From IMG/VR virus record IMGVR_UViG_3300031873_001030: a stretch of DNA of 64,000 bases; one strand, 5' to 3'. The notes under the pieces were generated by a model, which had not been told where the DNA came from, searched no databases, and was given only the letters and a program-made list of their open reading frames with translations. A program made the translations under genes and the position numbers. Positions within the stretch are counted from its first letter, which is position 1. Each line of letters begins with the position of its first letter. This document shows, piece after piece, positions 6,224 through 47,100 of the stretch. This DNA is from a virus (lineage: Duplodnaviria; Heunggongvirae; Uroviricota; Caudoviricetes).

Positions 6224-6949
6224 TTTGTATCGACTTTATCATTCGGTCAGGTAAGGCGGGTTCAGGTGGGGTATAGTTTCGGTTCGGTATGGTAGTTTGA
6301 CATTTATACGATACGGTAAGGTGAGGTTTGGAAGATAGTCTTTATGATTCGGTAAGGTGGGGTCAGTTGCGATTGTGTGAGGTTTGATTTGGTTTGGTCT
6401 GATTTGGTAGTTTGAGGCAAGGTAAAGTTAATTCCTTTTATATGATAAGGTATGGTCTAATTCGGTCTGGTTTGGTTGGATGGGCTACGTTCCGATAAGG
6501 TTCGGTATGGTAATATGACACTTATACGATTAGGTTCGGTCAGGTAAGGTTGGGTCAAATGCGATTAGGTAAGATGAGGTTCGGTCAGATACGGCAAGAT
6601 ATGGTATAATATTTATTCGGTTAGGTGAGGTCAGTTTAGGTCTGGTCTGATGTAGTTTGGCATGGTAGTATAACACTTATCGGTTTGGTTCGGTATGATG
6701 CGATATGGTCAGATTCGGTTTGATATGGTAGTATGACACTTATTGGTCAGGTTTAGTAGAATATGGTAAGGTTCGGTTCGATACGGTGGGATATGGTCAG
6801 TTAGGATTTGGAAAAGGAGAGAATAGTTTCAAGAAAGAATCAGCCCTTGGGTGAGTCCCTTGAAATGAAAAATGCCGCACCAGAGATGGTGATATTAGGT
6901 AAACTAATATAAATCAAGGTTCGAACCGTCCGTTAGGCAACGGTTCTCT

Positions 6950-21728: not shown

Positions 21729-22961
21729 TTGGAGATGAAAGTGATGAACATAGGTGAAGTTGAAATTGGAAAACCTTGGCAATATAAGGAAAATTCTATT
21801 GGAATTGTTGTTCCACTTTTAAGGAAGAATCAAGTCAAAAGAAATTATAAGACAGTTGAGGAAGTTAAGGAGATGATGAATATCAAGGATACTGGAAATA
21901 TAGACAGTGTTGAAATTTCCTCAAAAGTCAATGAACCAGTTTTTATCAGGAGCGGGACGATGTTTGAAGGGGTTGGAACTCAGAGCAGGACGCCAACAAC
22001 TAGCATTGTCATAATTCCAAATCAACAGCCTATGAAAGTTCCTGTAAAATGCATACATGCTTCTCATCACATATCTTCTGGAAGCAACTTTAAAGTCGCA
22101 GGTAGTATTCCCCACTATATTGGTTATGCAGCTTTTGGACCAAGGGCTAGTCAATCTCGTGTGTGGTCTTCTGTAAGCATGCAAGCAAGTTCTGTAAGCC
22201 ATCATGCTATGCATCTTTCTGACAATCTTATCGATAACGTAAGAAAAATAGAAACTTTTAAGAAAGATATTGGCGAAGCAGTTAAAAACTATCCGATATT
22301 GAAAAATCAAGTTGGTATAGTTGTTCTTGATTTTAACGGGGTTGTTGGTCTTGAGATGTTTGATAATTCTGAATCTTGGGCAGCAGTATGTAAAGACATA
22401 ATCAATAAGTATTCTGACACAATAACACAGCTTGTTGACAGTCCTTTATTTTCATTGAATGAAGAAAGCATAAAACCAAAGATATTGGAATTCTTGAAGA
22501 AGCTGACAGAAGCAAAAGAAGAGATTATCTTTCAAGCAGATGTGATGAAAACAATCTTATTGGAAAATGGAGATATCATTGGAGAATGTACGAGTATTGA
22601 TGGCAGGATGATACATCTCATGGGAATGAAAAAGAAGGATGAGGAAAGGACATATGGTTCAGTTGCTCCAAATAATTTACCATTTACACCACAAAATTGG
22701 ACAACCAGAGGTTCTAACTATTCTGTGCTATCTGCACTTGGAGATGGAAGTAGGAGATTTTCAGAAATAGAGAAAACAACTAAATTATCCCCAGCTACAG
22801 TAAGCAAAAATTTAAGCAAGTTCCATTCTCTTGGATTTATTGACAAGTCAGCAGAAATAATAAACAACAAGGCCCGTGAAGTTTATAGCCTTACAAGCAA
22901 CGGTAAAAATGCATTTTTTACTATGCATGATGTCAGGAAGAAATTGATGAAGCTTGGATAA
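21729..22961 (+). CDS. uncharacterised N-domain fused to a C-terminal wHTH (ArsR/TrmB-like)
   Basis: C-terminal YSVLSALGDGSRRFSEIEKTTKLSPATVSKNLSKFHSLGFI. Confidence 0.6.
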   Translation: MEMKVMNIGEVEIGKPWQYKENSIGIVVPLLRKNQVKRNYKTVEEVKEMMNIKDTGNIDSVEISSKVNEPVFIRSGTMFEGVGTQSRTPTTSIVIIPNQQPMKVPVKCIHASHHISSGSNFKVAGSIPHYIGYAAFGPRASQSRVWSSVSMQASSVSHHAMHLSDNLIDNVRKIETFKKDIGEAVKNYPILKNQVGIVVLDFNGVVGLEMFDNSESWAAVCKDIINKYSDTITQLVDSPLFSLNEESIKPKILEFLKKLTEAKEEIIFQADVMKTILLENGDIIGECTSIDGRMIHLMGMKKKDEERTYGSVAPNNLPFTPQNWTTRGSNYSVLSALGDGSRRFSEIEKTTKLSPATVSKNLSKFHSLGFIDKSAEIINNKAREVYSLTSNGKNAFFTMHDVRKKLMKLG

Positions 22962-23109
22962 GCCTTAAATACTTTAACAGCCAATATTTTTTAGATATCA
23001 AATGAGAATCTACGATAATGTCACGATATAAGTTACACATTATGTGTAACCTCTCTATCTTTGCCTAGCAAGTGAAGACAGGGACATAAAAGAAAAAGAG
23101 GTAGATTCA

Positions 23110-23427
23110 ATGGTATTAATGTATAGGCAGGGAGACTTGCTTTTCAGAAAAGTAGAGAAGATTCCTTCTAATGCAGATGTCGTTAAAAATGGCGTTATTC
23201 TAAAAGGTGAAGCGACTGGACATGCTCACAAGCTTGTAGGCGGTACAGTATTTTCACAGTCAACTGGATTCATGGGAAATGGTCCAAGACAAATGTTCCT
23301 TCAAGTTGAAAAGAGCGGAAGAGTTGTTCATGAAGAACATAAAACAATTGAACTTGAAATTGGGTTCTACATCGTAATCCGTCAACGTGAATATAACCCA
23401 TACAGAATCTCATTAGTCGGGGATTAG
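23110..23427 (+). CDS. hypothetical protein (QGDLLF...GEATGHAH motif)
   Basis: ORF track. The motif resembles a small family seen in phage genomes (memory only). Confidence 0.55.
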   Translation: MVLMYRQGDLLFRKVEKIPSNADVVKNGVILKGEATGHAHKLVGGTVFSQSTGFMGNGPRQMFLQVEKSGRVVHEEHKTIELEIGFYIVIRQREYNPYRISLVGD

Positions 23428-24054
23428 ATGATGGACGAATTCAAGAACACAATGAAAGGATTCTTTCACAGTTTTGATTATCTTCCTGAAGTGTTCAAGA
23501 CTCTTCATATCATAAGGCTAGTTCCAGGAAAGTTCGAGGTCAAGATGAAGCAGCCAATGATAATCCTTGGAAACCTGAGATTCCTGAATGAGACAAAACA
23601 TAGATGGCAGGAATACAATTTCGAAACTTTCTTCCTCAAAAAGAGAATTCCAGATTGCCAATGCAAAGAAGTCATGGATGCTGCAAAGGAATACATCCTA
23701 TTCAAAAGACTGCATGAGAACCAGAAAATCAGTGCAAGAGAAATAATGAATTGCAAAAATCTCGAATTGAGGAGAGCATTACTTGAAAGGTTTGGTTATG
23801 AGAAAATGTTGAATGAGCTTGGTGGACATATGATAGATGCAGAAGGAAATTACATTCTTTTCAAAATGGATTTCAGGGAAGTAAATGAATCTGTAAAATT
23901 AAATGAGGATGTAAAACTTTTGAAGATGAAGGATTCCTCAACAGAAAGATGGTATGTATTAAGGGTTCCTCCAAATGTAAAAAATTGCACTGAAGCTGTG
24001 TCATGGTCTTTCAATACGCCAGTTGAAGAATACAAATTAGAAGTGGAAACATAG
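23428..24054 (+). CDS. hypothetical protein
   Basis: ORF track; abuts the previous stop. Confidence 0.55.
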   Translation: MMDEFKNTMKGFFHSFDYLPEVFKTLHIIRLVPGKFEVKMKQPMIILGNLRFLNETKHRWQEYNFETFFLKKRIPDCQCKEVMDAAKEYILFKRLHENQKISAREIMNCKNLELRRALLERFGYEKMLNELGGHMIDAEGNYILFKMDFREVNESVKLNEDVKLLKMKDSSTERWYVLRVPPNVKNCTEAVSWSFNTPVEEYKLEVET

Positions 24055-24110
24055 TGCGTGTGACAGGATTTGAACCTGTAAGGCACTAAGCAACGGATAT
24101 CCAAGTCCTA
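24055..24110 (-). other. tRNA 3'-part-like fragment (T-arm ACAGG-TTCAAAT-CCTGT plus acceptor strand CACACGC plus A); no matching 5' acceptor strand found
   Basis: Read on the minus strand. The complementary GCGTGTG occurs once (31075-31081), inside ORF 31056..31520 and about 7 kb away, so it cannot be the 5' acceptor strand. Confidence 0.35.
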
Positions 24111-24415
24111 ATCGTTTAAGTTTACTCTTGGTTTGAGCCTTTGAGTTTGGGCCTCTAAGTCCGCCTATCTTTTAAATAATTATATATGCTGTAATATATA
24201 TTATGAAAAAGCGAAAACTAATTTAACTGTTGAAATTAAAGTTATTGGATATGTCTTACTGTAAAGCATGCAGAATATGCCTTCCTTTCTTAATTCATCA
24301 TGCAATTTTATAATTAAGAAGGTTATAATGTTGACTTTGATACTCTTCTTTCCAGCACAAGCTCATATCTTTTTAATACCTTCCTTATTGCAGCAATGAT
24401 ACTTATCTTTTTCTC

Positions 24416-24479
24416 TTAACATATGTTAATCAGTGATGCAGCATAATGCAAAATTCCTTCAGTCTTTAACATATGTTAA
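24416..24479. repeat. palindrome pair (24416-24429, 24466-24479) enclosing a 36-bp insert
   Basis: Read directly; lies between the tRNA fragment and tRNA-Tyr. Confidence 0.95.
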
Positions 24480-24527
24480 TGTCAAATTAGAAATGCAATA
24501 CGATTGTTAACAAGAAAGTTAACAAAG

Positions 24528-24598
24528 TCTCACCTGCCAGAATTGCACCAGCATCTACGAGGCTACAGCTCGTTGTTCTACTGTTGAACTAAGGCGAG
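24528..24598 (-). tRNA. tRNA-Tyr (GTA)
   Basis: Hand fold CTCGCCT-TA-GTTC-AACAGTA-GAAC-A-ACGAG-CTGTAGC-CTCGT-AGAT-GCTGG-TGCAATT-CTGGC-AGGTGAG-A; C1-G72 as in archaeal/eukaryal tRNA-Tyr. Confidence 0.75.
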
Positions 24599-24601
24599 TT
24601 G

Positions 24602-24674
24602 TGGGGATGCTGAGATTTGAACTCAGATTATTCGCTTCCAGAGCGAAGGTTCTAACAAGTTATACTACATCCCC
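24602..24674 (-). tRNA. tRNA-Pro (TGG)
   Basis: Acceptor GGGGATG/CATCCCC, anticodon arm TTCGC-TCTGGAA-GCGAA, T arm CTGAG-TTCAAAT-CTCAG. Confidence 0.85.
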
Positions 24675-24677
24675 AAG

Positions 24678-24751
24678 GGAGAATAGAGGGATTTGAACCC
24701 TCTCTAACAAGTTCACAGCTTGACGTGCTCGCCTACTACACCATATTCTCC
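24678..24751 (-). tRNA. tRNA-His (GTG) with genomically encoded G-1
   Basis: G-GAGAATA...TATTCTC-C, D stem GTGT/GCAC, anticodon loop CTGTGAA, T arm GAGGG-TTCAAAT-CCCTC. Confidence 0.8.
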
Positions 24752-25212
24752 ATTTTATTATGTTCTTCTCTATGGCAATTTGCACATAGAAGTTTGCATT
24801 TCTGCAATTCTTTTCGTATCACCTCGAGACTATTATGCCATATTCTGGATATTTCATATTTCTTTTCTCCGTTCATATGATGAAATTCAAGTGCTGCGAA
24901 ACATTTGTTATATCCACATTTTTGACATTTACCTCCAAATTCCATTTTCATAATTTTTGTTTTTTCTTGGTTTTTACGCTTTTGTGCTATATACCACAAA
25001 TGTCTCTGAGGGAGAGATGATTTTTGTTTATGTTGTTTTATATATTTTCTCATATATTCTCTATGATATTTTTTCCTTTTTTCTCTGTTTTCAGGGTTTG
25101 ACAACCAAATTTTCCATCGTTCTTTTTCTTGCTCACGGTGTGATTTTCTATATAATCTATTTATTTCACACAATCGTTCTTTGTTTTTTTCATAATATTT
25201 TTTACTGGTCAT
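24736..25212 (-). CDS. HNH endonuclease with N-terminal basic Tyr/Lys-rich region, inserted in the tRNA cluster
   Basis: CQKCGY...LEFHH...N...CANCHREEH; its 3' end overlaps tRNA-His by 16 nt. Confidence 0.8.
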   Translation of the reverse strand: MTSKKYYEKNKERLCEINRLYRKSHREQEKERWKIWLSNPENREKRKKYHREYMRKYIKQHKQKSSLPQRHLWYIAQKRKNQEKTKIMKMEFGGKCQKCGYNKCFAALEFHHMNGEKKYEISRIWHNSLEVIRKELQKCKLLCANCHREEHNKMENMV

Positions 25213-25255
25213 ATAATGTAATTGTTTAATACCATTTATATTTGTTGTTGAACTA

Positions 25256-25330
25256 CGCTCTGGGCAAGACTCGAACTTGCAATTTCTCCGTTAACAGCGG
25301 AGCGCTTGTACCTGTTTAAGCTGCCAGAGC
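25256..25330 (-). tRNA. tRNA-Asn (GTT)
   Basis: GCTCTGG-CA-GCTT-AAACAGGTAC-AAGC-G-CTCCG-CTGTTAA-CGGAG-AAATT-GCAAG-TTCGAGT-CTTGC-CCAGAGC-G. Confidence 0.85.
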
Positions 25331-25333
25331 AAG

Positions 25334-25437
25334 TACTCCCCGAATGATTCGAACATTCGTCTCTTGGTTTCTCCAAGTTTCAGATTCTTGTTGAAATTAT
25401 CAAAGCCAAGCATCTTTGTCCACTGGACGAGGGGAGT
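25334..25437 (-). tRNA. tRNA-Gln (TTG) with a ~31-nt intron after position 37
   Basis: Acceptor ACTCCCC/GGGGAGT (A1-U72); anticodon stem CTTGG/CCAAG enclosing CTTTGA-[intron]-A; T arm GAATG-TTCGAAT-CATTC. Confidence 0.65.
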
Positions 25438-25466
25438 ATATTGATTGTAGTTCTTTTTAAAAACTA

Positions 25467-25538
25467 TGGACACAAGCGGGAATCGAACTCGCATCTCTTT
25501 CTTGCAAGGGAAGTATCCTACCATTAAACGATTGGCCC
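25467..25538 (-). ncRNA. degenerate tRNA-like element (Ala TGC-like anticodon loop CTTGCAA) with mismatches in the acceptor, anticodon and T stems
   Basis: GGGCCAA...TTGTGTCCA pairs at only 5 of 7 acceptor positions (2 mismatches). Anticodon stem CTTCC/GAAAG and T stem GCGAG/CCCGC each carry an A-C mismatch. Confidence 0.35.
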
Positions 25539-25702
25539 GTCATTGAAGAAAAAAGAACTAGCTCTATTGATTTGCCTTATGGGCGGGCTGTTGATTATAT
25601 GCTTCAATAGACATATTAGAAAATTTAGTCTTGATGATTGATTTGATTTTGTATTATGTGATATATAGAATGCAATATATATTTTAGAAGCATTATTTTC
25701 TA

Positions 25703-25729
25703 GATTTATCCCTCTAACGGGATTTATAT
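25703..25729. promoter_or_regulatory. GATTTATCCC-tctaac-GGGATTTATAT hairpin unit overlapping the XPF stop codon
   Basis: Read directly; same unit as 7707-7758 and 43483-43508. Confidence 0.5.
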
Positions 25730-26358
25730 TTTTCAGTCAATATCTTCTTGATTCTAGTTGAAAGTACGTCTCCTATTCCCTTTGCTTTCTGCAAGTCTTC
25801 CTCACTGGCTAAAAGTACTTTTTCAACAGAACCGAGATTTTCCAACAGCCTTTTGGATATTGTCGAATTTACTCCAGGAATGGAGGAGACTATCTGCTCT
25901 TGTATCTTTGACATTTCTGTCGGCACCTTTTCAAATTTGTATGATACAGTTCTTTTGCTTTCAACTTGCTCTTTTTTCGCAAGATGATATATCATTCTGG
26001 CAGTGTCCATTTTGTCCTTAGTATTTACTATGGAAATGTTGAATCTGATGATTAGACTTGCCATAGCGGCTTTCACAATGTTCACATCTATGCGTTCATT
26101 TGGAAATCCTTCTATGATTATGATGACAATCTTAAAATTGTCCTTCATCCTAGTTGTCTGTTCAAATAACCTTCCATCAAATATTGACGCTACAAAATCT
26201 TGATATGTCTTCCTTTCAATCACTGTCCTATCCGAAACTATGAAGTCTCCAACTTCCAAGAAAGATTCATTCAAGTTGACGTTGGCAAAATTTCTCAGAA
26301 AGTATATCAGCTCTTTTTCCCTGGAATCTGCTGATATCGTGATTTTAAATTCTTCCAT
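25714..26358 (-). CDS. short-form XPF/Hef-type ERCC4 nuclease with C-terminal (HhH)2
   Basis: DSRE...VGDFIV...VIERKTYQDFVASIFDGRLFEQ...IIIIEG; C-terminal IPGVNSTISKRLLENLGS...AKGIGDVLSTRI. Confidence 0.85.
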   Translation of the reverse strand: MEEFKITISADSREKELIYFLRNFANVNLNESFLEVGDFIVSDRTVIERKTYQDFVASIFDGRLFEQTTRMKDNFKIVIIIIEGFPNERIDVNIVKAAMASLIIRFNISIVNTKDKMDTARMIYHLAKKEQVESKRTVSYKFEKVPTEMSKIQEQIVSSIPGVNSTISKRLLENLGSVEKVLLASEEDLQKAKGIGDVLSTRIKKILTEKYKSR

Positions 26359-26598
26359 AGTATTATCAGTAATTGCAAAAATATATCTCCGAAATCGGGA
26401 AGGTTACAGATTCACTGGAAACCAGCGAAGCATTGTCGATGCTATGAAATCCTTCCCAGTAGGAGATAAATTTATTTGTGCAGATAATCTTAAATACTTT
26501 AACAACCGATATAATTGTATCTCTCATACAGCTATGGGATTCATAATACAACAACAGGATGTAGTACAGTTTCCGTAGCGATTTTGGAGGGTACATTT

Positions 26599-26859
26599 AT
26601 GGATACCATCACGCTATATATACTTAGAACAAAGCCAGAGACACATTTCTATGTTGGAATTACTAAAGACCTTGATAAGAGATTAGAACAGCATAAAAAT
26701 AATCCAAATGTCTCTTGGGTAAAAAGAAGAAACTTTAAATTTGATTTAGTATGGAGAGAGAAATTTCCTGATTTGAAATCTGCAAGGAAAAAGGAGAAAT
26801 ATTATAAGAAAATGGAAAGGAAAAGACTCTTAAAAATCATTGGGATAAAAGGAGTGTGA
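26599..26859 (+). CDS. GIY-YIG nuclease-domain protein (paralog 1)
   Basis: LYILRTKPETHFYVGITKDLDKRLEQH...RKKEKYYKK; GGAGGG precedes ATG 26599 (track start 26515 is less likely). Confidence 0.8.
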   Translation: MDTITLYILRTKPETHFYVGITKDLDKRLEQHKNNPNVSWVKRRNFKFDLVWREKFPDLKSARKKEKYYKKMERKRLLKIIGIKGV

Positions 26860-26863
26860 TGGT

Positions 26864-28279
26864 ATGGAACTAAACAAAGGTTCAAAAAGAACGAGAAAAG
26901 TAATTAATCCTGAAGGTTCTATAGTATTGAAACGTTCAGATGAAATCCAGCTATATCTTGAAGCAAGCAATCTCAACATAAAGGAAGATAAGTTCTATCA
27001 GAGTGCTAAGGACAAGCTGGCAAGCTTGATAAAGATGGCTAGGGAAGCCAATCAGGCATACGTCTTTGGTCTTGGAAGATTCTTAACTGACAACGGATTG
27101 AAACTTTCTCCAGTTGTGTTATATTCAGTACTGTCTGACAGACATGTTCCAATTAATGCAAGTGCAATAAAGACATTCAACACTCCTCAAAGAATAGCAG
27201 AAGCTGTATCATTGCAGAATCTTAAGATAGTTAAATTGAACAACCAATTCAAGAAAAAGATTCTTAAGAAAGCCTTGGAAAACATGTCAGAATTTACTTT
27301 GAGAAAGAACAAGATGCTTAAGAGAAAAGTCAAGGAAAAGGACTTGATTAAACTTTTGAGGCCTAAGCCAGCAAATGCAGAAATGGCAAAGCTATACAAG
27401 GCAATTATAGAAGATGACAAGCTTTCAAAGATGAAGGAGACTGAAACATTTGTAAGAGTGAAGTCTTCAAAAGAAATGAACACTAAAGATAAGCTTGATT
27501 ATTTGACAAATAACGTAGACAGGCTTCCAATAAATGAATTGATAAGAAATCTTAAGTTCATCTCTGAAAATGCAGACTTCAGGAAAGACTTTGAATTGAA
27601 GAGCAAAGTGATAGCAAAATTGCAGAATATAAAGGACATGAGGTTCTTGAACGTTTTTGATTTGATAACCACTGTGGTTTATGTTCCAGACTTCAGCAAG
27701 GCACTGTCAGAAGTTGTAAAGAAATTTTGCGATGATGTTAAAGCTAAGTTTGACTACAATGAAAGTGCAACTGTATTATTTGACTTGTCTGGAAGTATGG
27801 AAGGGGAGGGAATAGAAAAAGGTTTTAAGTACTTGGTACTGTTTGCAAATATATTTGGCAATTTGAAATTGAGATGCTTTAGTGAAGAATTGCTTAAGGA
27901 CACTTACCAGAATGTCATCACTGACATAAATAAAGGAAATTACAAGATTGCATTGAACAAGCTTGACACTATCGGTGGAACTGCATTGCTTGATTCTTTG
28001 GACAAACTTATAGATGAGGGAAAGACTGAATCTAATATAATCATTATAAGCGATGAAGTGAGCTGGCTTGAAGGAGATGACTTGAGTGTGAGAATAAAGG
28101 AAATTTCAGACAAGCTTAAGGGAAAGAAAGTGATACTGGTAAATCCTGTAGTTTATAAGGGAACAGTATTCAGGGACAATATAATTGCATTTGCAAGCCT
28201 TACCTCAAATGTCATTTACAATCTGATGATAGGAACAAAGCCAGAAGCATTTGTAAAGATGATAAAAGAATATAAGTGA
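26864..28279 (+). CDS. Ro60-like TROVE domain plus vWA (MIDAS) protein
   Basis: NPEGS...FYQS, KDLIKLLRPKP (compare Ro60 KDLLRLSHLKP), LIRNLKF; vWA MIDAS residues DLSGSM, GGT, SDE. Confidence 0.65.
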   Translation: MELNKGSKRTRKVINPEGSIVLKRSDEIQLYLEASNLNIKEDKFYQSAKDKLASLIKMAREANQAYVFGLGRFLTDNGLKLSPVVLYSVLSDRHVPINASAIKTFNTPQRIAEAVSLQNLKIVKLNNQFKKKILKKALENMSEFTLRKNKMLKRKVKEKDLIKLLRPKPANAEMAKLYKAIIEDDKLSKMKETETFVRVKSSKEMNTKDKLDYLTNNVDRLPINELIRNLKFISENADFRKDFELKSKVIAKLQNIKDMRFLNVFDLITTVVYVPDFSKALSEVVKKFCDDVKAKFDYNESATVLFDLSGSMEGEGIEKGFKYLVLFANIFGNLKLRCFSEELLKDTYQNVITDINKGNYKIALNKLDTIGGTALLDSLDKLIDEGKTESNIIIISDEVSWLEGDDLSVRIKEISDKLKGKKVILVNPVVYKGTVFRDNIIAFASLTSNVIYNLMIGTKPEAFVKMIKEYK

Positions 28280-28299
28280 TAAAAAAGGAAGTGAAATAA

Positions 28300-28599
28300 A
28301 TGGGAATGTTTGATTATGTATTGGCAGATTTCAAATGTCCTTACTGCAAATTTATTGTTGCACAAGAAAGCATGCAGAAAAGTGTAAACACTGGGGAATA
28401 TGACACATGGCAAACAAAAGATTTGAGTTGCGGTTTGAGGATAATAAAGGTTGGTGACAAGATAAAATTAAGTGGGATGCATATCGGAAAAGGATTCCTA
28501 AACATTCATCACATATGCCCAAAATGCGACAAGCTTGTCGAAGCAAGAATCAAAATAAAGAATTACAAGCTTACAAACAAAAAGAGATACATAATATGA
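28300..28599 (+). CDS. zinc-ribbon protein (CPYC...CPKC)
   Basis: ORF track. Confidence 0.55.
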   Translation: MGMFDYVLADFKCPYCKFIVAQESMQKSVNTGEYDTWQTKDLSCGLRIIKVGDKIKLSGMHIGKGFLNIHHICPKCDKLVEARIKIKNYKLTNKKRYII

Positions 28600-28844
28600 A
28601 CTTTGAAGACTCATCAAGAGAAAGGATAGAATCCATGAAGAAATTAAAGGACGAATTTTTAGAGGAAGTATTCAAGAAATTTGGAATGTCCAAAACTGGA
28701 AGTAATGATATCTATAAGGTGAAGGACATGTCAATAGGTATCGTTAGAGATGAACTATATCAAGTGTTCAGAAAATTGGCAAAGCAGGAATTGCGAAATA
28801 CCTTTACTAAATTATGCAAGGAAATAGATGGTGATGAAGATTAA
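28596..28844 (+). CDS. hypothetical protein (ATG 28596 overlaps the previous stop; track start 28515 is less likely)
   Basis: ATATGA overlap; in frame with the track ORF. Confidence 0.45.
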   Translation: MNFEDSSRERIESMKKLKDEFLEEVFKKFGMSKTGSNDIYKVKDMSIGIVRDELYQVFRKLAKQELRNTFTKLCKEIDGDED

Positions 28845-29322
28845 GCAATACAAGATAGTCTATCCAAAAGAGTTTGAGGTCAACGAAACTTGGGGAAAAT
28901 CATTTGTTTTTCCATTTGAACCATTGGATTTGTCAAATAAGCCAGATAGCTTGGGAAGAATTGAGTGGCATATAGAACTTGTAATGGATAAGAAAAAGAG
29001 CAAGGTCAGCAAATCATTTTCAAAATATTACATAAAGGAATTGTGGGTATTTGCCACACAGACAAAAGATAAGAGGTACATAGGTAAAATATTCAAGATA
29101 CCGTGCCATACAGAAACTCTTACTGCTTCTTCTTTCCATCCTGAGGACTATTTGAACAACTTATGGAAATTCACATTCTGCGATGAGCACAAGAACCCAC
29201 TCTTTTCTGCATATCCAAAAGATGAGCACAAATATTTTGTGATTGATGCATCAAGTTCCATTTCAATAGAACCAAAATTCATGTCAAAATTACCTGTTAA
29301 AGATGTACTGCATAAGAGTTAG
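28828..29322 (+). CDS. hypothetical protein
   Basis: ORF track. Confidence 0.5.
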   Translation: MVMKIKQYKIVYPKEFEVNETWGKSFVFPFEPLDLSNKPDSLGRIEWHIELVMDKKKSKVSKSFSKYYIKELWVFATQTKDKRYIGKIFKIPCHTETLTASSFHPEDYLNNLWKFTFCDEHKNPLFSAYPKDEHKYFVIDASSSISIEPKFMSKLPVKDVLHKS

Positions 29323-29483
29323 AATAAAGTAATGATGTAAAATGTATGTTGCGATATATAATTTCTGAAATCTAAAACAATATTAATCATCTTTCATAAA
29401 TTTTATTCTGCTCCTAAAAGTTTGTCTTAATAAGCTAGCTTTACGGAGTATTTGATAAGTAAGTAAGTAACTAGGTAATAATA

Positions 29484-29903
29484 ATGGATAAGCCTAAATC
29501 AAATGAAGAGGAAAAGTTTGAGAAGGGAGCAGAGGCTAGTTCATCTACCCTTGCTCCTTCTTCAAAATTAAAAGAAGAGAGAAAAATTCCTGAGGCGACT
29601 TTTGTGGTTCCTACTTCTACTATTGGGACTTTTGTGAAGAAGGATGATAAAGACGTTTCATTTCCAGAATGGGAGGGACGGTATAGGAAACGGGCTAGGA
29701 GGCTTGGGATTATTTTCACGGTCTGCTGTATTTTGGCTGTCATTTGGTTGTTATACATTTACATTGCTGGAAACAAGGATGTCCTTAGTACGATAACATA
29801 TACTCTTCTGATGTGGATACTTGTGATAGTGTTCCTGAAGTTTGCTGTGAATAGGAGAGTAAAGCAGAAAGAGAATTCCTATAGAAAGAAAGCGGAGGGC
29901 TAG
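29484..29903 (+). CDS. membrane protein (two TM helices, acidic/basic N-tail)
   Basis: ORF track. Confidence 0.55.
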   Translation: MDKPKSNEEEKFEKGAEASSSTLAPSSKLKEERKIPEATFVVPTSTIGTFVKKDDKDVSFPEWEGRYRKRARRLGIIFTVCCILAVIWLLYIYIAGNKDVLSTITYTLLMWILVIVFLKFAVNRRVKQKENSYRKKAEG

Positions 29904-29905
29904 TT

Positions 29906-30238
29906 GTGGGAAATTACAGATTTCTTATAACTCTTGAGCTCCTTGGGAGATTAGTCTTGGGTGTGAGCTGGCTTATTTTCGTCAGCGCTTTTGTGCGGTT
30001 TGGTGAATATTTTTCGGCTTTTGCGTTTGTAGTTTTTGGATTGTCATCTATCGCAATGGTTTACTGGATGTTCGTTCCATTCTTCATTCCTGTTGCTTTA
30101 TTGACCCCACTGATGGGGTTGACAAGAAAGAAAGATGAGAAACTGGATAGCAGAAGGAAACCAGAGGAATTTTCTGGAATGATACTTTTCAACTTGGCCT
30201 ATGAAAGATTAAAACAGAGAGTAGAGCGAGGTTCATAA
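29906..30238 (+). CDS. membrane protein (three TM helices)
   Basis: ORF track. Confidence 0.5.
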   Translation: MGNYRFLITLELLGRLVLGVSWLIFVSAFVRFGEYFSAFAFVVFGLSSIAMVYWMFVPFFIPVALLTPLMGLTRKKDEKLDSRRKPEEFSGMILFNLAYERLKQRVERGS

Positions 30239-30241
30239 TCA

Positions 30242-31066
30242 ATGGCTAAACTTACTGCTACTGTAAATGATGTTGTCATGTTCAAGTCTCTTTTTGGTCT
30301 GTTGTGCAGGAATTCTGATATGCTAAAATTTAAAGTCGATAAGGAAGGTATAAGTTCTGTTACTATGCCTGCGGATATGGCGACTTTTCTTAGTGTTTTG
30401 ATAAAGCCAAATTTCTTTGAGGAATGGAATTTTGAAGGTTCGTTCATGTATTGCTATTTTGACCCGCAGCAATTTTCTCGGATGATGAAGAATCTTACCT
30501 CGAAGAAGATTGAGATGGTGCTTGATGAGAATTATATAAATTTCAGTCTTGAGAACGAGGGAAGAAAGAAACATATCTCATTGGTACAGATTACTGGAGA
30601 ATTGTCAGAGCTTCCTGGGAATTTGGGAACTGATTTTGATTTTTCATGGATTATTGAGATAGAGACTTTGAAAAGCATTGTGGATGATATTGTCAATGTC
30701 GATGACAATGCGGATTTGTCTTCCATCTATTTCACATGGGAAAAAGACAGTCTGAAAGTTGAAGCAAGGGAGAGTAAGGTCATGAAGTTTGAGACTATTA
30801 TTGGCCCACCTTTTGTGAAATGTGGTAGCGGGCATTCTTCTTTTAGGACCAATTATTTTTCAAAGATAGTCTGGGCTGGTCTTGGTAAGATTAGATTTTC
30901 AATCTTGAATACTGACGGTCCAGCTTTTATGGAGACTTGTGATGATAGCAAGTTCTCATTGAAATTTATTGTGGCGCCTTTTGTGGCAAGTAATCCTGAT
31001 ATGGATATCACGTCCGAGAATGACGGTAAAAGTTCACAAGATAGTGAGGTGGTAAGTGATGGGTAA
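30242..31066 (+). CDS. divergent PCNA-like sliding clamp with acidic C-terminal tail
   Basis: Colinear resemblance to archaeal PCNA recalled from memory: FKVDKEGISSVTMPADMATFLSV vs FKVTEDGISMRAMDPSRVVLIDL, and terminal LKFIVAPFV vs LTFLLAPRV; ~250-aa core. Confidence 0.65.
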   Translation: MAKLTATVNDVVMFKSLFGLLCRNSDMLKFKVDKEGISSVTMPADMATFLSVLIKPNFFEEWNFEGSFMYCYFDPQQFSRMMKNLTSKKIEMVLDENYINFSLENEGRKKHISLVQITGELSELPGNLGTDFDFSWIIEIETLKSIVDDIVNVDDNADLSSIYFTWEKDSLKVEARESKVMKFETIIGPPFVKCGSGHSSFRTNYFSKIVWAGLGKIRFSILNTDGPAFMETCDDSKFSLKFIVAPFVASNPDMDITSENDGKSSQDSEVVSDG

Positions 31067-35502: not shown

Positions 35503-35982
35503 GTGATTGATATGAAAATTGAAGTAAGGATGCACCATCTTAGCGAACTTAAGAGAAAGTTGCTTGATTCTGATATGAATCATACCAAGTATATTTTACT
35601 GGATGAGATGAGAGCGACGATAGATAAGTTGAAGGGTGACAGGAATCTCATGTTCAAGATTGTTGCTATGATGTCGAAAGTGACTACTGCTTCTCGGTTG
35701 ACTACTGAAGGGATGATAATGGCTTTGGAAAATATGGTTTTGTTTGATATAATGCAATATGATATTTTACAGGATGGTGATGTGACTGTTTTGAATCTGA
35801 ATGTTGATGATAATTATTTTGAGATTTTTAACAAGATTCCTCTGATTGGCAGGTTTATCTCAACTCTTTCTGGAGGAAGAAAAAGATATTTGGAAGAGGT
35901 GAGAAAAACTATAGAGGAGGATTATACAAAAGATTATACACTGAAAATAATCATGGATGATACAAAGGAGGTTCATGAATAA
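35503..35982 (+). CDS. hypothetical protein
   Basis: ORF track. Confidence 0.5.
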   Translation: MIDMKIEVRMHHLSELKRKLLDSDMNHTKYILLDEMRATIDKLKGDRNLMFKIVAMMSKVTTASRLTTEGMIMALENMVLFDIMQYDILQDGDVTVLNLNVDDNYFEIFNKIPLIGRFISTLSGGRKRYLEEVRKTIEEDYTKDYTLKIIMDDTKEVHE

Positions 35983-36239
35983 TGAATCGCGTCACATTGT
36001 ACATATTAAAATGCGATAATGGAATGTTTTATACTGGTATTACTAGAGATTTAAAAAAGAGACTTTTTCAGCATAGAAATTGTAAAAGTTCTTCATTTGT
36101 AAAAAGAAGAAATTTAAATTTTGATGTTGTTTATACTGAAACTTTTGGGAATTGGACACTTGCTAGAAAAAAGGAAAAATATTATAAGAAGATGAATAGG
36201 GAAAAATTAAAAAAAATTATAAAGAGTGTGACGCGATGA
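35982..36239 (+). CDS. GIY-YIG nuclease-domain protein (paralog 2)
   Basis: LYILKCDNGMFYTGITRDLKKRLFQH...RKKEKYYKKM; colinear with 26599..26859. Confidence 0.8.
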   Translation: MNRVTLYILKCDNGMFYTGITRDLKKRLFQHRNCKSSSFVKRRNLNFDVVYTETFGNWTLARKKEKYYKKMNREKLKKIIKSVTR

Positions 36240-42054: not shown

Positions 42055-42583
42055 AATCTTGAATGTCGGTTGTGGTAATGATACCTATGGAACGGATTTT
42101 ATAGACATGTATCCGATGAGAAAGGAAGTAAGAAGATGCGATATTGAGAATGAGAAGCTTCCATTCAAGGATAATACTTTTGACGAAGTGTATTCTGAAA
42201 ACTTTTTTGAGCATCTGAAAAATCCAAGCAATGTGTTGAAGGAAATGAGAAGAGTGTTGAAGCATGGAGGCAAGCTTGTAGTCATAACAGATAATGCTGG
42301 ATTCTGGGCATTTCATATTGCTGGTGCTACTACTCACTATGGAGGATATGAGAAGAAAAGTTTTGGAAAATTGGACAGGCATTTCGGATTGTTCACCCCT
42401 TGGCATCTGAAAAATCATTTTGAAGATATCGGACTGAAAAATATCATGTATAAATATAGGTTATTGAGAAAGAAAAATCCTTATTGGTATGTGAGAATAA
42501 TTTCAAATGTCATAAGTGTTGTGACTAAGAGAATGGGACAATCGCAGATAAGGATTGAAGGTATTAAACAATTTACCAAATAA
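42044..42583 (+). CDS. class I SAM-dependent methyltransferase
   Basis: ILNVGCGND, LPFKDNTFDEVYSENFFEHL, LKHGGKLVVITDN. Confidence 0.8.
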   Translation: MVARILNVGCGNDTYGTDFIDMYPMRKEVRRCDIENEKLPFKDNTFDEVYSENFFEHLKNPSNVLKEMRRVLKHGGKLVVITDNAGFWAFHIAGATTHYGGYEKKSFGKLDRHFGLFTPWHLKNHFEDIGLKNIMYKYRLLRKKNPYWYVRIISNVISVVTKRMGQSQIRIEGIKQFTK

Positions 42584-43328
42584 TTTGGTACAATTCAATT
42601 GTTCTATTTGGAAAACCAAAAGAATTTGATGTGTTTACTTCTTCATCATTTTGAGGTTCGATGAAAATTCTACCTTTGTCTGTAGTGTTGAATATTATTA
42701 TTGCATGCCCTATTGTGTAATTTTTCCATTCAATATATACTAAGCCAATACTGATGTGTTGTTTAAGAGAATTTAATATGATGTCTCGACTAAAGTCCCA
42801 ACAATTATAAGTTTCATTATATGTGTTTTCATTTGTCTTATCAGTAGCTATGAAATTTTTCATATCATTATATGTTGGGTCTTGAGAATTTTCATAGAAA
42901 AGGTAGTCATTTAAATTCCACGTATTACGATAGAATGTTGTCAAGTTAGTTGTGTTAAAGACTGATATATTTGTTATGTTCAATACTGTCAAATTAGTTG
43001 TGTTAAAGACTGATATATTTGTTATGTTCAATACTGTCAAATTAGTTGTGTTAAAGACTGATATATTTGTTATGTTCAATGTTGTCAATTCTGTTATGTT
43101 CGTTACGTTTAATACTGTGATATTAGTTATGTTAAGAATTTTGATGTTTGATATCGAACTGTTGACTAAATTTATCTTATCGTCTAAAAGAGTTTTTACA
43201 CTGCTTAGTTCATTTTGTGTGGAAGTTAGACTTTTTTGTATTTCAGATGTTTTTTGAATCTGAAAAATTATTGTAATCAAGGTTGCAATAAAAATTGTGG
43301 AAAAGACGAAGATTGTCTTTGAATCCAT
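42573..43328 (-). CDS. membrane-anchored protein: NIT/NTT 16-aa repeats plus a C-terminal Cys-His domain (possible thiol-peptidase/transglutaminase-like core)
   Basis: TM helix near the N-terminus; NITNISVFNTTNLTVL x3; YNCWDF...IGHAIIIF...IEPQNDE. Confidence 0.65.
   Translation of the reverse strand: MDSKTIFVFSTIFIATLITIIFQIQKTSEIQKSLTSTQNELSSVKTLLDDKINLVNSSISNIKILNITNITVLNVTNITELTTLNITNISVFNTTNLTVLNITNISVFNTTNLTVLNITNISVFNTTNLTTFYRNTWNLNDYLFYENSQDPTYNDMKNFIATDKTNENTYNETYNCWDFSRDIILNSLKQHISIGLVYIEWKNYTIGHAIIIFNTTDKGRIFIEPQNDEEVNTSNSFGFPNRTIELYQIIW
42939..43082 (-). repeat. 48-bp tandem repeat x3 (near perfect), with degenerate copies to ~43140, inside CDS 42573..43328
   Basis: Units start at 42939, 42987 and 43035. 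Confidence 0.9.
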
Positions 43329-43919: not shown

Positions 43920-44162
43920 TGTGAGTTGAAGAAAACATGTCACATGGGGAAAAAAGACAGAGAAGGAAAAAAACTAAGAAGCAAAGGCAAAGAAAAAGGA
44001 TGAAAGAGAGGAGAGACAAAGGGAGGTAATCTATGAATGAGATTGACATCCATGAAATGAATTATTTCATCGACATGGTGTCACCAGCTTATCAAGATGA
44101 GTTGTGAAAAAAATGAGATGCGAAAACAATAGGGGTAATTGCCCAATTTGGAGGGTTTTGTA

Positions 44163-47100
44163 ATGGCAAATAGTATTTTTGGTCAGCCTCAGCCAAATCC
44201 ATTTTCACCAGGCACGACATTGCCGTCATCAAATGTAAGTGTGACGCCAAGTATGCCCATTGGTGGATTGACTGTAGGATTAGGAGGAAGTGGAAATGTT
44301 TATTATGGAGGAGCGCCTGCTGGAGGAGTTGGTCAGACTACAACAACAACTGGAGGTCCTGCGATTTATATTCCTCCACAGGAGACTGCAAAAGCAGCAG
44401 AAAAAACAATAACTCCTGCTTTGATTCCTGAAATAAAACCGCCAACTTTAAAAGTTGGTGTCGGCGGATTGGTAGAAGGTTTGGGAAAATCTGGTAATGT
44501 ATATGAAGGTGGTGTGCTTGTTGGAGGTACTACTCCATGGGGTCCTGTAGTTAAGGAAGGTGGTGTCAGTTATGTCCCAACTGGAAGGACAGCTGAAACT
44601 GGAGAGACAATTTATTCTGGAACTCAGATAAGTTCTGCAACACCTATTGGAACTTTTGTGCCTGCAAAGAGAATTGAAATAACTCCACTGATGCCAGAGA
44701 TTAGTGTACAACCAGCTACAGCTGGTGCTATAGGTCTTTCATTTCCTGCAGGTGTTTTGTCTGTAAAATCTGGTCCAGTTGATGTGAGCAAACTTTCTCC
44801 AGATGTGCAGACTGCGTTGGGAAATCTTCAAGGAAAGGTGCAGGCTGAATATCCAGGATTCAAGCTTGCAAGTTGGACTCGTGAAGGTGATGAGCTGAAA
44901 GGTGTTTTGGAACCTGTGAAGTATGTCTCACTTGGAACTGATGTTACGAAAGCGACTGCTGCCATAAAGGATTTGGGATTGAAAGAAGGTGATTATAAAT
45001 TATATACTGGAATTGGTGGGGATTATCAGCTTGTGACTGATAAGGTGTCAAGCCAGAAATACGTGAGTGGTCTTCTTTCCAGTTATTCAGTTATTCCTAT
45101 AACTGGGTATGGACAGTATAGAGGGTCTGATGAGAGGATTGCATTGAAGTTTCTTGATAAGGAAGGTTATATCAAAGATGGTGTGATAAGCAAAGATGTT
45201 CAAGTGATAGGGGATATAGGAGTAGGAGGAACTGGTGCGATGATAGTTTTAAAGGGAAGTACAAAGAGTTCTGAAGATTTGTCAAAGACTTATTTTTCTT
45301 CCTTGACTGAAGTGCAGAAGGAAGATACTGCGATGGCAAGAGGAGAGTTGCAGATTGCTCAGGAAAAGGAACTTTTGAGACAACCTGGTATGAGTGTTGA
45401 AAAGGGAGCTGCTTGGTGGAATTTGAATGTTGGTCCTTATATGCTTTCTCCAAAGGACCCTCTTGGTCTGAGGAGTGCTTACATAGGAGTTGAAGGTTTG
45501 GTAAAAGGAACTCCTGTCAGTGTCATACAAAAGGACATAGAAGCTAGCAGGCTTTCTGCAGAACAGGAATTTCTTCAGAGAAAATATATGGGAGAGTCTT
45601 GGACTAAATCATTATGGGAAGCTCCTGCAACGCAGCCTTTGAAAGTTGCTGCTACTTGGTATGGCGGTGGTCTTTTGTTGGGAGGTGCTGCTGGAGTTCT
45701 TAAAACTGCTGAAGTAGGTGCTGGTATAGTATCAAAAGCTCCATGGCTTGCAACTACAGGAAGAGTTATTTCAACTGCTGGAAAAGTTGCGACAAGTGTT
45801 CCAGGACAAGTTGTAATTGGTTCAGGATTGTATGGTTTTACTGAAAGAGGAAATATAATGGCACTTGCAAAAGGAGGTGTTCCAAGAGACATTGTTCCTG
45901 GAATGATTTTTGACGCATCACAATTTGGATTTGCATATGGCGGTGCAGCTGCAGGTTTTCCAGTTGGTTATTCTAGAGGTGCTGGATTGGGTTATGCTTT
46001 CAAGCCTGGTGCATTGCCTCCATCTGAAACATTCGTGGCAGAAATCAGAGGGACTGGAGTATCTGGAATTCCAGGTGAATTGCAAGGATTGAAACTTGGG
46101 ACAAGGGTTGCTGGAGAAGTTCCAAAGGGTTTTGTTCCAAAAGGATTTAGTGAAGGTGTTCCTTATAGGGCGTTCTTGCAGGAGGGTGTGACAGTTACAA
46201 GAGCTGGAGAAGTTGTACCTTCTGGGACTTTGATGCCAACTATTGCAGAAATGGAACCTGCAAAACCTTTGATGCAGAGGATTGCCACTGCAATGACAAA
46301 GCCAAGCGAATTGATTCCTAAGATGCTTCCTGGAGGACCTACTGTTGAAGCTCCTTTTCTTGAATCAATCAGATATGGTGAAGAAAAGATAGCGAAAGGA
46401 GGAACTAAGGATATTTATGCTGCAGGTTATCAGCCAGGAACTACAATATGGTCAAGATTGAAGATGCCTGTTGAAGGAGCGCAGTATGGGATTGCTGAAG
46501 GTTTTAAGACTGTTACAGCTGAGAGTCCTCTTGCTTCGTTGACAGAAAAATACACTACAAGGATGGCATTGAGAGCTACTGGCGCTCCTATTGAAGCGGG
46601 AGATGTTGTTCCAGTGAAAATAATGGCAAAGACAGATTTTATTGTAAATGATGAAGGGATAGCTGCGATGTTGAAATCTGGAAAGAATCTTGCAGATATT
46701 GAAAAATTGAAAGGTGCTGATATAATACAGCGTGATATTGAATTTGCAGATAAGCCTGCTGTAAGGTACACTAGATTTATTGATAAGGAAACTGGAAAAT
46801 CTTTGGTTGTGTTGAAGCAGACTGCAGCTCCTACAATAGAGGAAGTTGTTGCTTTGGCAGAGGAAGGAAAGACTTTGATAAAACCTGAATATGTTGGAGG
46901 AAAGGTTGCAGGCTATAGTATAAGAGGTACTGAAATAGTTGGAGAGGGGAAAGAATTTGCAGGAGGAGTGCGTTATAAAAAGGGTGTTGAAGTAGTTGGT
47001 AAGGAACAAGTGACAGGAATAGCTCTTGATGATAAGACATTTAACGCATTGATGGATAAATATGGAAACAAGATATTGAGGGTTTCATCTCCGACAACTG

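Follow-up and report, generated by a model that had tools for sequence, protein, structure and literature searches.

The particles that Ro60 proteins form with their Y RNAs are understood for animals and a handful of bacteria and phages. Y RNAs that adjoin Ro60 genes and mimic tRNA in a T, acceptor stem, D (T/AS/D) order have been described for more than 250 bacteria and phages (PMC4201824), and the Ro60 of a phage (phiRo60) binds two Yrl RNAs encoded upstream of it and attenuates PNPase (PMC12135203). Ro60/TROVE genes have also been reported from archaeal elements: 20 of 29 tRNA gene clusters of archaea have them (PMC6333295), the Borg core includes them (PMC11208441, PMC9605863), and the Asgard 'Nidhogg' viruses carry them alongside XPF and RNA ligase (bioRxiv 10.1101/2021.07.29.454249). 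What these genes do on archaeal viruses, Borgs and tRNA clusters has been guesswork because no partner RNA has been found reported; our full-text literature search, which had incomplete coverage and gives absence of evidence only, retrieved no Y RNA described for an archaeal-associated Ro60. Here we analyze a 64,000-nucleotide (nt) stretch of viral DNA (Caudoviricetes; IMG/VR record IMGVR_UViG_3300031873_001030), hereafter the window, in which an open reading frame (ORF) of 471 amino acids with an ATG start, at 26864-28279 on the + strand, encodes a Ro60 homologue. An earlier note on this DNA took such a gene to be unusual in archaea, a view that has to be narrowed given these reports on archaeal mobile elements (PMC6333295, PMC11208441, PMC9605863). 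We consider it likely that the gene and a set of Y-like RNAs of its own make up a self-contained mobile cassette.

The protein has the domain plan of Ro60, an N-terminal HEAT-repeat (TROVE) ring followed by a C-terminal vWA domain with a complete MIDAS motif (metal-ion-dependent adhesion site). The motifs from which the earlier note had read a Ro60/Rsr layout are all present in the translation and in the order given there, with NPEGS (residues 15-19), FYQS (44-47), KDLIKLLRPKP (159-169) and LIRNLKF (226-232) in the TROVE region and DLSGSM (307-312), GGT (371-373) and SDE (396-398) as the MIDAS residues. An alignment of 47 homologues shows D307, S309, S311, M312, T373, D397 and E398 of the MIDAS region to be invariant, together with P83, P108, N224 and N229. 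The ATG start is supported by the invariance of M1 in the close family, whose consensus N-terminus is MELNK. The Pfam check proposed in the note came back empty, as TROVE (PF05731) and VWA gave zero matches to the protein even at E<=10. Its NCBIfam search likewise gave no match and its PHROGs scan nothing meaningful; a Pfam match to CotO (E=0.02) was judged spurious. Among the 47 homologues, Pfam TROVE matches three weakly (best E=0.0098), VWA_CoxE matches 15, and the VWA_CoxE/VWA_2/VWA_3 models together match up to 15.

Comparison with solved structures is far more telling. A single-sequence search found the Ro60 of Thermus phage phiLo (9L5Y/9KOP, 'TROVE domain-containing protein') at E=3e-6, and a profile of the 47 homologues searched against the PDB matched the same phiRo60 at E=4e-28 over residues 15-464, with human Ro60 at E=0.0046, Xenopus Ro at 0.034 and Deinococcus Rsr at 0.24. 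An AlphaFold2 model built on the homologue alignment (mean predicted local distance difference test score 85.4, predicted template-modeling score 0.83) is all-helical over residues 26-296 and has an alternating beta/alpha fold over 301-443. When this model was compared with the PDB by Foldseek, the top 12 matches were the 12 Ro60/Rsr/phiRo60 chains, superposed at full length with template-modeling (TM) scores of 0.55-0.69 and E-values of 2e-11 to 7e-9; the ranks below hold isolated vWA domains only. The layout is thus confirmed through solved Ro60s instead of Pfam, and because the fold is that of Ro60 and not a different one, the missing TROVE match leaves the assignment standing. The protein is almost certainly a very divergent Ro60 ring protein, and by analogy it would be expected to bind Y RNAs and misfolded RNAs.

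Its relatives are few. A word-indexed search returned 97, all metagenomic and none informatively named; about 85 of them make up a close family, with identities of 43-57%. When 1.84 billion cluster representatives were scanned exhaustively with HMMER, 64 clusters passed E<=1e-30 and 208 passed E<=1e-10; the clade is therefore small. No match to the protein was obtained by tblastn against 50,697 GenBank phages, a tblastn search of 72,556 plasmids (PLSDB) yielded a single remote relative, a TROVE gene carried by a plasmid of Allomeiothermus silvanus (22% identity), and a protein search of IMG/VR found three Ro60 relatives at ~30% identity. The survey of phyletic distribution that the earlier note had proposed was thus run, and it describes a clade that is rare and known from metagenomes only.

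The 500-900 nt upstream of Ro60 are free of ORFs in most related loci, and an all-against-all comparison of these upstream regions uncovered a conserved, internally repeated block. Two covariance models were made of it. R1 was built from five copies of the element, all from other loci and with no window sequence, and R2 describes the scaffold of the element and included the window copies in its training; the E-values of such models are rough, as calibration was short. Among the fetched loci R1 matched 45 places, all on the Ro60 strand, all upstream of the gene and arranged in tandem runs, and R2 found 51 elements in 22 of the 22 close-family loci whose upstream sequence is retained. The elements lie within about 1.7 kb upstream of Ro60, most of them within 700 nt, and the usual array consists of two to six tandem elements abutting the Ro60 start codon. 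The largest arrays have six elements (L030) or five (L037 and L021), separated by gaps of 0-25 nt, and in nine loci there are 6-12 nt between the end of the last element and the Ro60 ATG.

All share the scaffold 5' nAUaCUCAUAcAG-N7-aUU(U/A)CAUA ... variable module ... N7'-(C)GAUUUUGGAG, with a 5' strand consensus of CUCAUAcAG and a 3' strand of (C)GAUUUUGGAG. The two strands form a conserved bulged helix consisting of CUC, an internal loop of 5 nt opposite 7 nt, a covarying stem of 7-9 base pairs (bp) and UUCAUA, and the variable module enclosed by it ranges from a few nt to about 130 nt. In 19 aligned short copies, 190 of 190 pair cells are standard pairs and all seven of the N7 pairs have double (compensatory) changes, and the internal-loop sequences are invariant in the scaffold alignment. 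The covariation score of this alignment is 0.733, as compared with 0.155 for shuffles (none of 500 reached the observed value) and 0.12-0.17 when the 3' partners were slid by 1-3 columns. Because the 19-copy set had been chosen partly by pairing, the test was repeated on 37 elements selected by motif only, among which 26 have all seven stem pairs and four have six of seven, as against 1.4% with seven of seven for mismatched partners. The failures are mis-joined neighbours or stray motif matches, and 34 distinct stems are represented. This motif-only test also counters the leaning of model-fitted alignments towards the structure of the model. Given how close the related loci are (43-57% protein identity), the independent events are fewer than the number of cells; paralogous copies inside one array already differ wholly in their N7 stems.

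Searches for known RNA families brought little besides tRNA. At the gathering score, Rfam reported only tRNA in the window, L002-L005 and L008; at E<=1 in L023, L024, L025, L030 and L037 it added one snoRNA (E=0.11) overlapping a tRNA; and at E<=10 over positions 23000-31000 of the window the only match over the Y-like elements was snoZ163 (E=7.1), on the first bases of 26519-26593, an overlap at the level of chance. Four RNA-pattern matches in GTDB genomes were set aside as chance, with R2 scores of 17-28 bits as compared with 29-69 bits (most above 40) for elements beside Ro60 genes, and the RNA-pattern scan of IMG/VR gave no match. The general features of Y RNAs are present, namely a location adjacent to Ro60, paired ends with a conserved internal loop, and a variable region beyond. 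The sole resemblance to the bacterial binding motif of PMC4201824 is a CGA trinucleotide on the opposite strand. We hold it very probable that the elements are real structured RNAs, and probable, with somewhat less assurance, that they are the partner RNAs of Ro60.

Two members of the family occur in the window, arranged divergently and both inside the 240-nt spacer between an XPF-type and a GIY-YIG gene. Y-RNA-like gene 1 (26519-26593, + strand) reads CUCAUACA-GCUAUGG-GAUUCAUA ... CCGUAGC-GAUUUUGGAG, and Y-RNA-like gene 2 (26383-26469, - strand) reads CUCCUACU-GGGAAGG-AUUUCAUA ... CCUUCCC-GAUUUCGGAG; the two copies lie 275 and 399 nt upstream of Ro60. With filters off over 22000-31000, R1, which was made from elements of other loci only, recovered gene 2 at E=2.3e-4 and gene 1 at E=1.8e-3, the next match being at E=1. 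Over the whole 64-kb window R2 gave the two genes 59 and 54 bits and everything else 13.5 bits or less, figures of which only the gap to the next match is informative because the window copies were in the R2 training set. The exact consensus pattern occurs once in the window, with 0.00 expected. For both genes the minimum-free-energy fold is the scaffold, with z=-3.07 for gene 1 and z=-4.52 for gene 2, for which none of 200 shuffles was equally stable. Gene 2 continues with two small internal hairpins and then a U5 run before the XPF start codon, and the GGAGG of gene 1 stands 8 nt upstream of the GIY-YIG ATG. Of the three intergenic regions in which the earlier note had suggested looking for Y-RNA-like stems, 26359-26598 thus contains two, as seen by R1, R2 and folding, and 25540-25713 and 29323-29483 gave no covariance-model match and unremarkable folding (z=-0.98 and +0.11).

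Signals for transcription accompany the arrays. In 14 of 18 related arrays a TATA-like octamer, YTTAWAWA (mostly TTTAAATA), starts 20-45 nt upstream of the first element, where 0.028 would be expected by background per 26-nt window; its position and sequence are those of an archaeal TATA box. The window has an archaeal-type TATA box, CTTAAATA, at 26489-26496, which we regard as a putative bidirectional promoter because both divergent Y-like genes have their 5' ends 25 nt away from its centre. Given gaps of only 5 and 4 nt, gene 1, the GIY-YIG gene and Ro60 probably form one transcript.

This close packing also bears on a different explanation, in which the elements are cis-acting structures in the leader of the Ro60 mRNA, controlling its translation or stability or offering Ro60 binding sites for autoregulation, and not free Y RNAs. 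In nine loci 6-12 nt separate the last element from the ATG, and in the window 6 nt separate it from that of GIY-YIG; the GGAGG of this element has the placement of a Shine-Dalgarno sequence and is sequestered in the terminal stem, and inter-element gaps of 0-25 nt imply a single transcript. However, one leader does not easily account for up to six tandem copies whose modules differ and are individually conserved, and GGAG is kept by internal copies that no ORF follows. In addition, the elements of L013 are situated in a tRNA array 1.5 kb away, an endonuclease gene intervenes between array and Ro60 in L021 and in the window, and the minus-strand copy of the window faces away from Ro60 and is followed by a U5 run. 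A pure leader function therefore seems unlikely to us, although translational control may well be an added layer over a role as Y-like RNAs.

In several related loci the variable module resembles a rearranged tRNA. Five aligned copies have, in this order, a T-arm GGGUUCGAUUCCC, a covarying tetraloop hairpin of 6-7 bp and a D-arm GUGUAAUGGUAGCAC, enclosed by complementary 5' and 3' strands, and modules of this type occur in L013, L023, L024, L025, L030, L037, L038 and L005. In this subclass the T stem is 100% paired with three of five pairs covarying, and the acceptor-like stem is 95.7% paired with five of six covarying; the D stem and an 'anticodon-like' UUCAUAC/GUAGAA helix are conserved in sequence and show no covariation. 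The order is the same as in bacterial YrlA, which has a T stem-loop, a closed acceptor stem-loop and a D stem-loop (PMC4201824; bioRxiv 10.1101/312249), and judged from sequence the module in the related loci is a YrlA-type permuted tRNA mimic. Judged by eye, module types appear to recur in partly similar order in the arrays of L024, L025, L030 and L037 (e.g. L030 7311-7994); they comprise short modules with a CUGAnnAGCGACCAAAA hairpin, modules of 160-180 nt with the stem GA(C/U)GCAG, tRNA-like ones and T-arm-only ones. The recurrence of module types suggests that there are several distinct conserved effectors.

The same tRNA resemblance could be read as a sign that these elements are tRNA genes of a circularly permuted or some other unusual kind, or repeats derived from tRNA, whose linkage to Ro60 is incidental. 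Their T-arm, acceptor hairpin, D-arm order with paired termini is shared by permuted pre-tRNAs from algae and one archaeon (bioRxiv 10.1101/312249), an archaeal-looking setting would supply a splicing endonuclease, and tRNA arrays are adjacent. Yet the elements have no anticodon loop, and their internal loop of 5 nt opposite 7 nt, which does not contain a 4-bp central helix, is not a bulge-helix-bulge. Moreover, the acceptor-like stem is closed by loops of 4-6 nt (GAAA, UUCG) that leave no space for a discriminator base or a linker, the same scaffold occurs in many copies that have no tRNA-like part, including both copies of the window, and Ro60 stays linked in 22 of 22 loci, with all other neighbours changing. 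We thus consider this explanation extremely improbable.

The reading of the elements as Y RNAs of Ro60 has to be weighed against several findings that speak against it. No Rfam 15 family matches the Y-like elements even at E<=1, and the known Ro60-binding sequences, the conserved helix of metazoan and Deinococcus Y RNAs and the bacterial GNCGAAN0-1G, are absent from the scaffold. The GGAG(G) of the last element is 6-12 nt before the start codon, so that its conservation could partly serve translation and not docking. Both window copies have short hairpins only, with no tRNA-like module, and gene 2 is on the strand opposite to Ro60, unlike all 49 elements elsewhere. The distant Ro60 homologues L002-L004 (~30% identity) are without Y-like RNAs, apart from one weak partial match in L002. 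Finally, a protein-pattern scan of 185,579 GTDB species genomes found zero relatives, which leaves the host unassigned.

Among the genes around the cassette, the one between the Y-like genes and Ro60 is a GIY-YIG homing-endonuclease-like ORF (26599-26859, + strand; Pfam GIY-YIG E=5.9e-14 and a weak NCBIfam match to group I intron endonuclease), whose true start is at 26599 and which stops 4 nt short of the Ro60 ATG. In L021 the corresponding place between array and Ro60 is occupied by a NUMOD3/Vsr-like endonuclease, and the GIY-YIG gene of the window looks like a homing-endonuclease insertion. A second GIY-YIG copy at 35982-36167 (+ strand) is 51% identical to it over 63 amino acids, consistent with mobile homing endonucleases spreading within the element. 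On the other side of the spacer is a nuclease of the XPF/Hef type with ERCC4 and helix-hairpin-helix domains (25714-26358, - strand), which matches archaeal Hef/XPF families. The tRNA array, tRNA-like element, HNH, GIY-YIG and XPF genes that the earlier note had listed as neighbours are all there, the HNH-like ORF (24736-25212), which interrupts the tRNA block, by its motif CxxC...HH...N...CxxCH only and with no Pfam match.

The tRNA block of the window (24527-25538, - strand) is context outside the conserved cassette. Gene calls place tRNA-Tyr, Pro and His at 24527-24750 and tRNA-Asn at 25255-25331, both on the - strand. The ARAGORN intron search adds an intron-containing tRNA at 25333-25437 (- strand), which at the default threshold has the anticodon UUA (ochre-suppressor type) and a 31-nt intron; with the intron shifted by 2 nt, it has a canonical 37/38 intron and the anticodon UUG (Gln). 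If UUA is the correct anticodon, UAA might be read through or recoded by the element. The minimum-free-energy fold of this gene has an elongated anticodon arm and a long variable-arm-like hairpin; we considered it as a member of the Y family, but it is without the scaffold and better read as an intron-containing tRNA. At 25468-25538 (- strand) there is a degenerate tRNA-Ala(UGC)-like element (37.5 bits with the Rfam tRNA model), called by ARAGORN only at a relaxed threshold and with mismatches in the acceptor and anticodon stems, which may be a tRNA gene in decay or a tRNA-like RNA. At 24055-24125 (- strand) the 3' half of a tRNA stands alone, with the T-arm ACAGGUUCAAAUCCUGU and then CACACGCA; it has no convincing 5' half and is rescued by ARAGORN only with a 231-nt 'intron'; it could be an att (integration) remnant or a split tRNA. 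Upstream of the block are an ARPP-1 domain fused to a winged helix (21729-22961, + strand) and a DUF6745 protein (23428-24054, + strand), conflict-system-associated or uncharacterised domains that may belong to another defence or counter-defence module.

Related loci have tRNA genes as well. There are 22 around the cassette of L013 (4588-6564 and 9449-12860), 19-20 in L037 (278-2603; ARAGORN without and with intron search), six beside the cassette in L012, and one to five in L003, L005, L008 and L033, so that tRNA genes are a recurrent, not universal, companion, in agreement with the published presence of TROVE genes in archaeal tRNA gene clusters (PMC6333295). In L013 the Y-like elements (6257-6458) are inside the tRNA array, 1.5 kb from Ro60, and their interleaving with tRNA genes suggests co-transcription and shared processing.

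Protein neighbours, in contrast to the RNAs, change from locus to locus. When 15 proteins of the window and related loci, XPF, PCNA, GIY-YIG, HNH, SPFH, DUF6745, RNA ligase and DEAD helicase among them, were compared by tblastn with all loci, no shared neighbour emerged, one weak HNH fragment aside; the conserved unit is thus the RNA array plus the Ro60 gene. This also bears on the idea that the TROVE-vWA protein is a component of a conflict or defence system, or of a TEP1/vault-like particle, in which the MIDAS would sense a protein ligand. Such a role is suggested by the Borg papers, which liken TROVE proteins to TEP1, telomerase and vault ribonucleoproteins (PMC9605863), by the role of the MIDAS in Ro60 being unknown (PMC12135203), and by the frequency of vWA domains in NTP-dependent conflict systems (PMC7159879), together with the XPF, HNH and GIY-YIG nucleases around the gene. 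However, no NTPase or effector partner is conserved with it, only structured RNAs of Y-RNA architecture, the solved protein closest to it, a phage Ro60, binds Y-like RNAs, and at 471 amino acids it is Ro60-sized and has none of the additional domains of TEP1. We therefore regard this as very unlikely and continue with a Ro60 that travels with its RNAs.

Several lines point to an archaeal host, namely the matches of the XPF and PCNA-like window proteins to archaeal families, the tRNA introns, among them a 66-nt intron at the canonical site of an L037 tRNA-Met, and the archaeal-type promoters. The contigs carrying related loci appear viral, with terminase, Mu-F, PolB and thymidylate synthase genes among them. 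L005, a 60-kb contig from Hainich groundwater, encodes PolB, thymidylate synthase, dUTPase, an RNA ligase and methylases, and L008 has a terminase fragment, Mu-F, a metallophosphatase, an RNA ligase, an HNH protein and a histone-fold protein; in both, the RNA ligase gene is near the Ro60 locus. Among 20 further ORFs of the window that were scanned, none is a viral hallmark gene. The Ro60-bearing element is a probable archaeal virus or plasmid.

Other features of the window recall Borgs. It has 35% GC, almost all of its genes on one strand, a positive GC skew and giant ORFs, and a PCNA/Rad9-like clamp is encoded at 30242-31066, 2 kb downstream of Ro60; the pairing of TROVE with a PCNA/Rad9-like protein recalls the conserved TROVE and Rad9 cluster of Borgs (PMC11208441). 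Judged by description, the GC content, one-strand coding and this pairing fit a Borg; the tandem repeats of the window, which also bear on this question, are few and mostly imperfect. The giant ORFs at 49389-60647 (+ strand, 3752 amino acids) and 44139-48161 (+ strand, 1340 amino acids) may encode surface or adhesin-like proteins. The larger contains about 14 copies of a 75-nt (25-amino-acid) repeat at 51805-52903, with further repeats at 62784-63700, and the 1340-amino-acid protein has zero Pfam or PHROGs matches. A near-perfect 48-bp tandem repeat (42939-43088, 3.1 copies, 97% matches) around the start of the ORF at 42573-43328 (- strand) might be iteron-like or regulatory.

How such a cassette might work can be outlined by analogy. 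A rare, metagenome-only clade of Ro60, on mobile elements with archaeal promoters and archaeal-type tRNA introns, would travel with its own small non-coding RNAs as a self-contained unit. These would be transcribed from a TATA box ~25-30 nt upstream, a single box serving two divergent copies in the window, and the plus-strand copy would have to be cut from its transcript because it is co-transcribed with GIY-YIG and Ro60. The conserved bulged helix would be what docks to Ro60, presumably at the ring's basic outer surface, and an effector would be recruited by the variable module of each RNA, as may be extrapolated from Deinococcus, Salmonella, M. smegmatis and phiLo (PMC4201824, PMC12135203, bioRxiv 10.1101/312249). 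In analogy to these systems, the Y-like RNAs may gate the Ro60 cavity and tether the ring to factors of the host or the element, such as exoribonucleases, tRNA-processing enzymes or an RNA ligase. The RNA quality-control or counter-defence function that the earlier note suggested is a putative one: during infection the resulting particle might send damaged structured RNAs, and tRNAs in particular, towards decay or repair, or it might blunt a host RNase, as phiRo60 does with PNPase. The likeliest targets would be tRNAs nicked or damaged in the conflict between host and element, considering the tRNAs of the element itself and the RNA ligase of its relatives; we give such a tRNA-centred counter-defence role slightly less than an even chance.

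A bolder version of this model, which we put forward tentatively and think rather improbable, is a modular 'adaptor array', in which up to six co-transcribed Y-like RNAs, alike in a previously unknown docking helix and different in their conserved effector modules, would attend a single viral Ro60 ring. The tRNA mimic, T-arm-only, 160-180 nt and short-hairpin modules would tether several host machines at once, for which tRNA-processing enzymes, the exosome, aCPSF/RNase J and RNA ligase would be candidates. Such an array might protect or repair the tRNA arsenal of an archaeal virus against host anticodon nucleases, or disable host RNA decay. If true, it would be the first Ro60/Y-RNA particle working with archaeal machinery and the first evidence of combinatorial Y-RNA repertoires.

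The candidate partner RNAs have strong comparative support and a consensus helix, the putative docking site, unlike every known Ro60 site, their promoter type points to archaeal transcription, and the cassette is compact, with a few hundred bases of RNA genes and a 471-amino-acid protein. If the RNAs indeed bind Ro60, the Y-RNA principle would extend to archaeal machinery, the clade would show how the Ro60 surface recognizes quite a different helix, and there would be a handle on the effectors that replace PNPase where it is absent. The covariance models R1 and R2 can be used for annotating such RNAs in viromes.

Among the systems known, phiRo60 of Thermus phage phiLo with Yrl1 and Yrl2 is the best match in both sequence and structure (E=4e-28, TM 0.65). 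It shares with the window protein a viral origin, a size of ~500 amino acids and the HEAT ring with vWA domain, and its Y-like RNAs are on the same strand immediately upstream of the gene, as in the present clade. It differs in its low identity (~18%), its bacterial host and its two RNAs, which were found by a CGAA motif absent here, whereas the present clade has arrays of up to six RNAs, another conserved helix and archaeal promoters. To our knowledge PNPase is generally absent from archaea, and the effector here must therefore differ from that of phiRo60.

The bacterial Rsr with YrlA and YrlB (Salmonella rsr-yrlBA-rtcBA; M. smegmatis) likewise has RNAs adjacent to Ro60 and several of them per locus. 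YrlA and the present clade have in common a T-arm, a closed acceptor stem and a D-arm joined to a terminal helix, YrlB-like T-arm-only copies occur in the present clade, and a link to RNA ligase and tRNA biology is common to both. YrlA of M. smegmatis is cut by RNase P and given a CCA tail. In contrast to the bacterial systems, the present clade is without GNCGAAN0-1G and without an Rfam match, its protein is beyond the reach of the Pfam TROVE model, and it has archaeal-type transcription signals and larger arrays, in which several module types appear to recur. Metazoan Ro60 (Xenopus 1YVP, human 9NEN) matches in its ring fold (TM 0.58-0.69) at ~14% identity, and metazoan Y RNAs resemble the present RNAs in that their termini pair into a conserved bulged helix with a variable loop beyond; they differ in the sequence of the helix and in being dispersed RNA polymerase III genes, not arrays abutting the Ro60 gene. 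The TROVE genes of archaeal elements share with the window their proximity to tRNA clusters, HNH and XPF-type nucleases, RNA ligase and a PCNA/Rad9-like clamp; those of the archaeal tRNA clusters, Borgs and Nidhogg have only the protein annotated, and we set them beside the present clade by published description, not by sequence. Thus, with this protein the Ro60 family, of which examples on archaeal elements had already been annotated, gains a new and remote member, and the RNAs beside its gene follow the Y-RNA/YrlA plan while differing from known ones in binding motif, Rfam match, array size, module diversity and promoter type.

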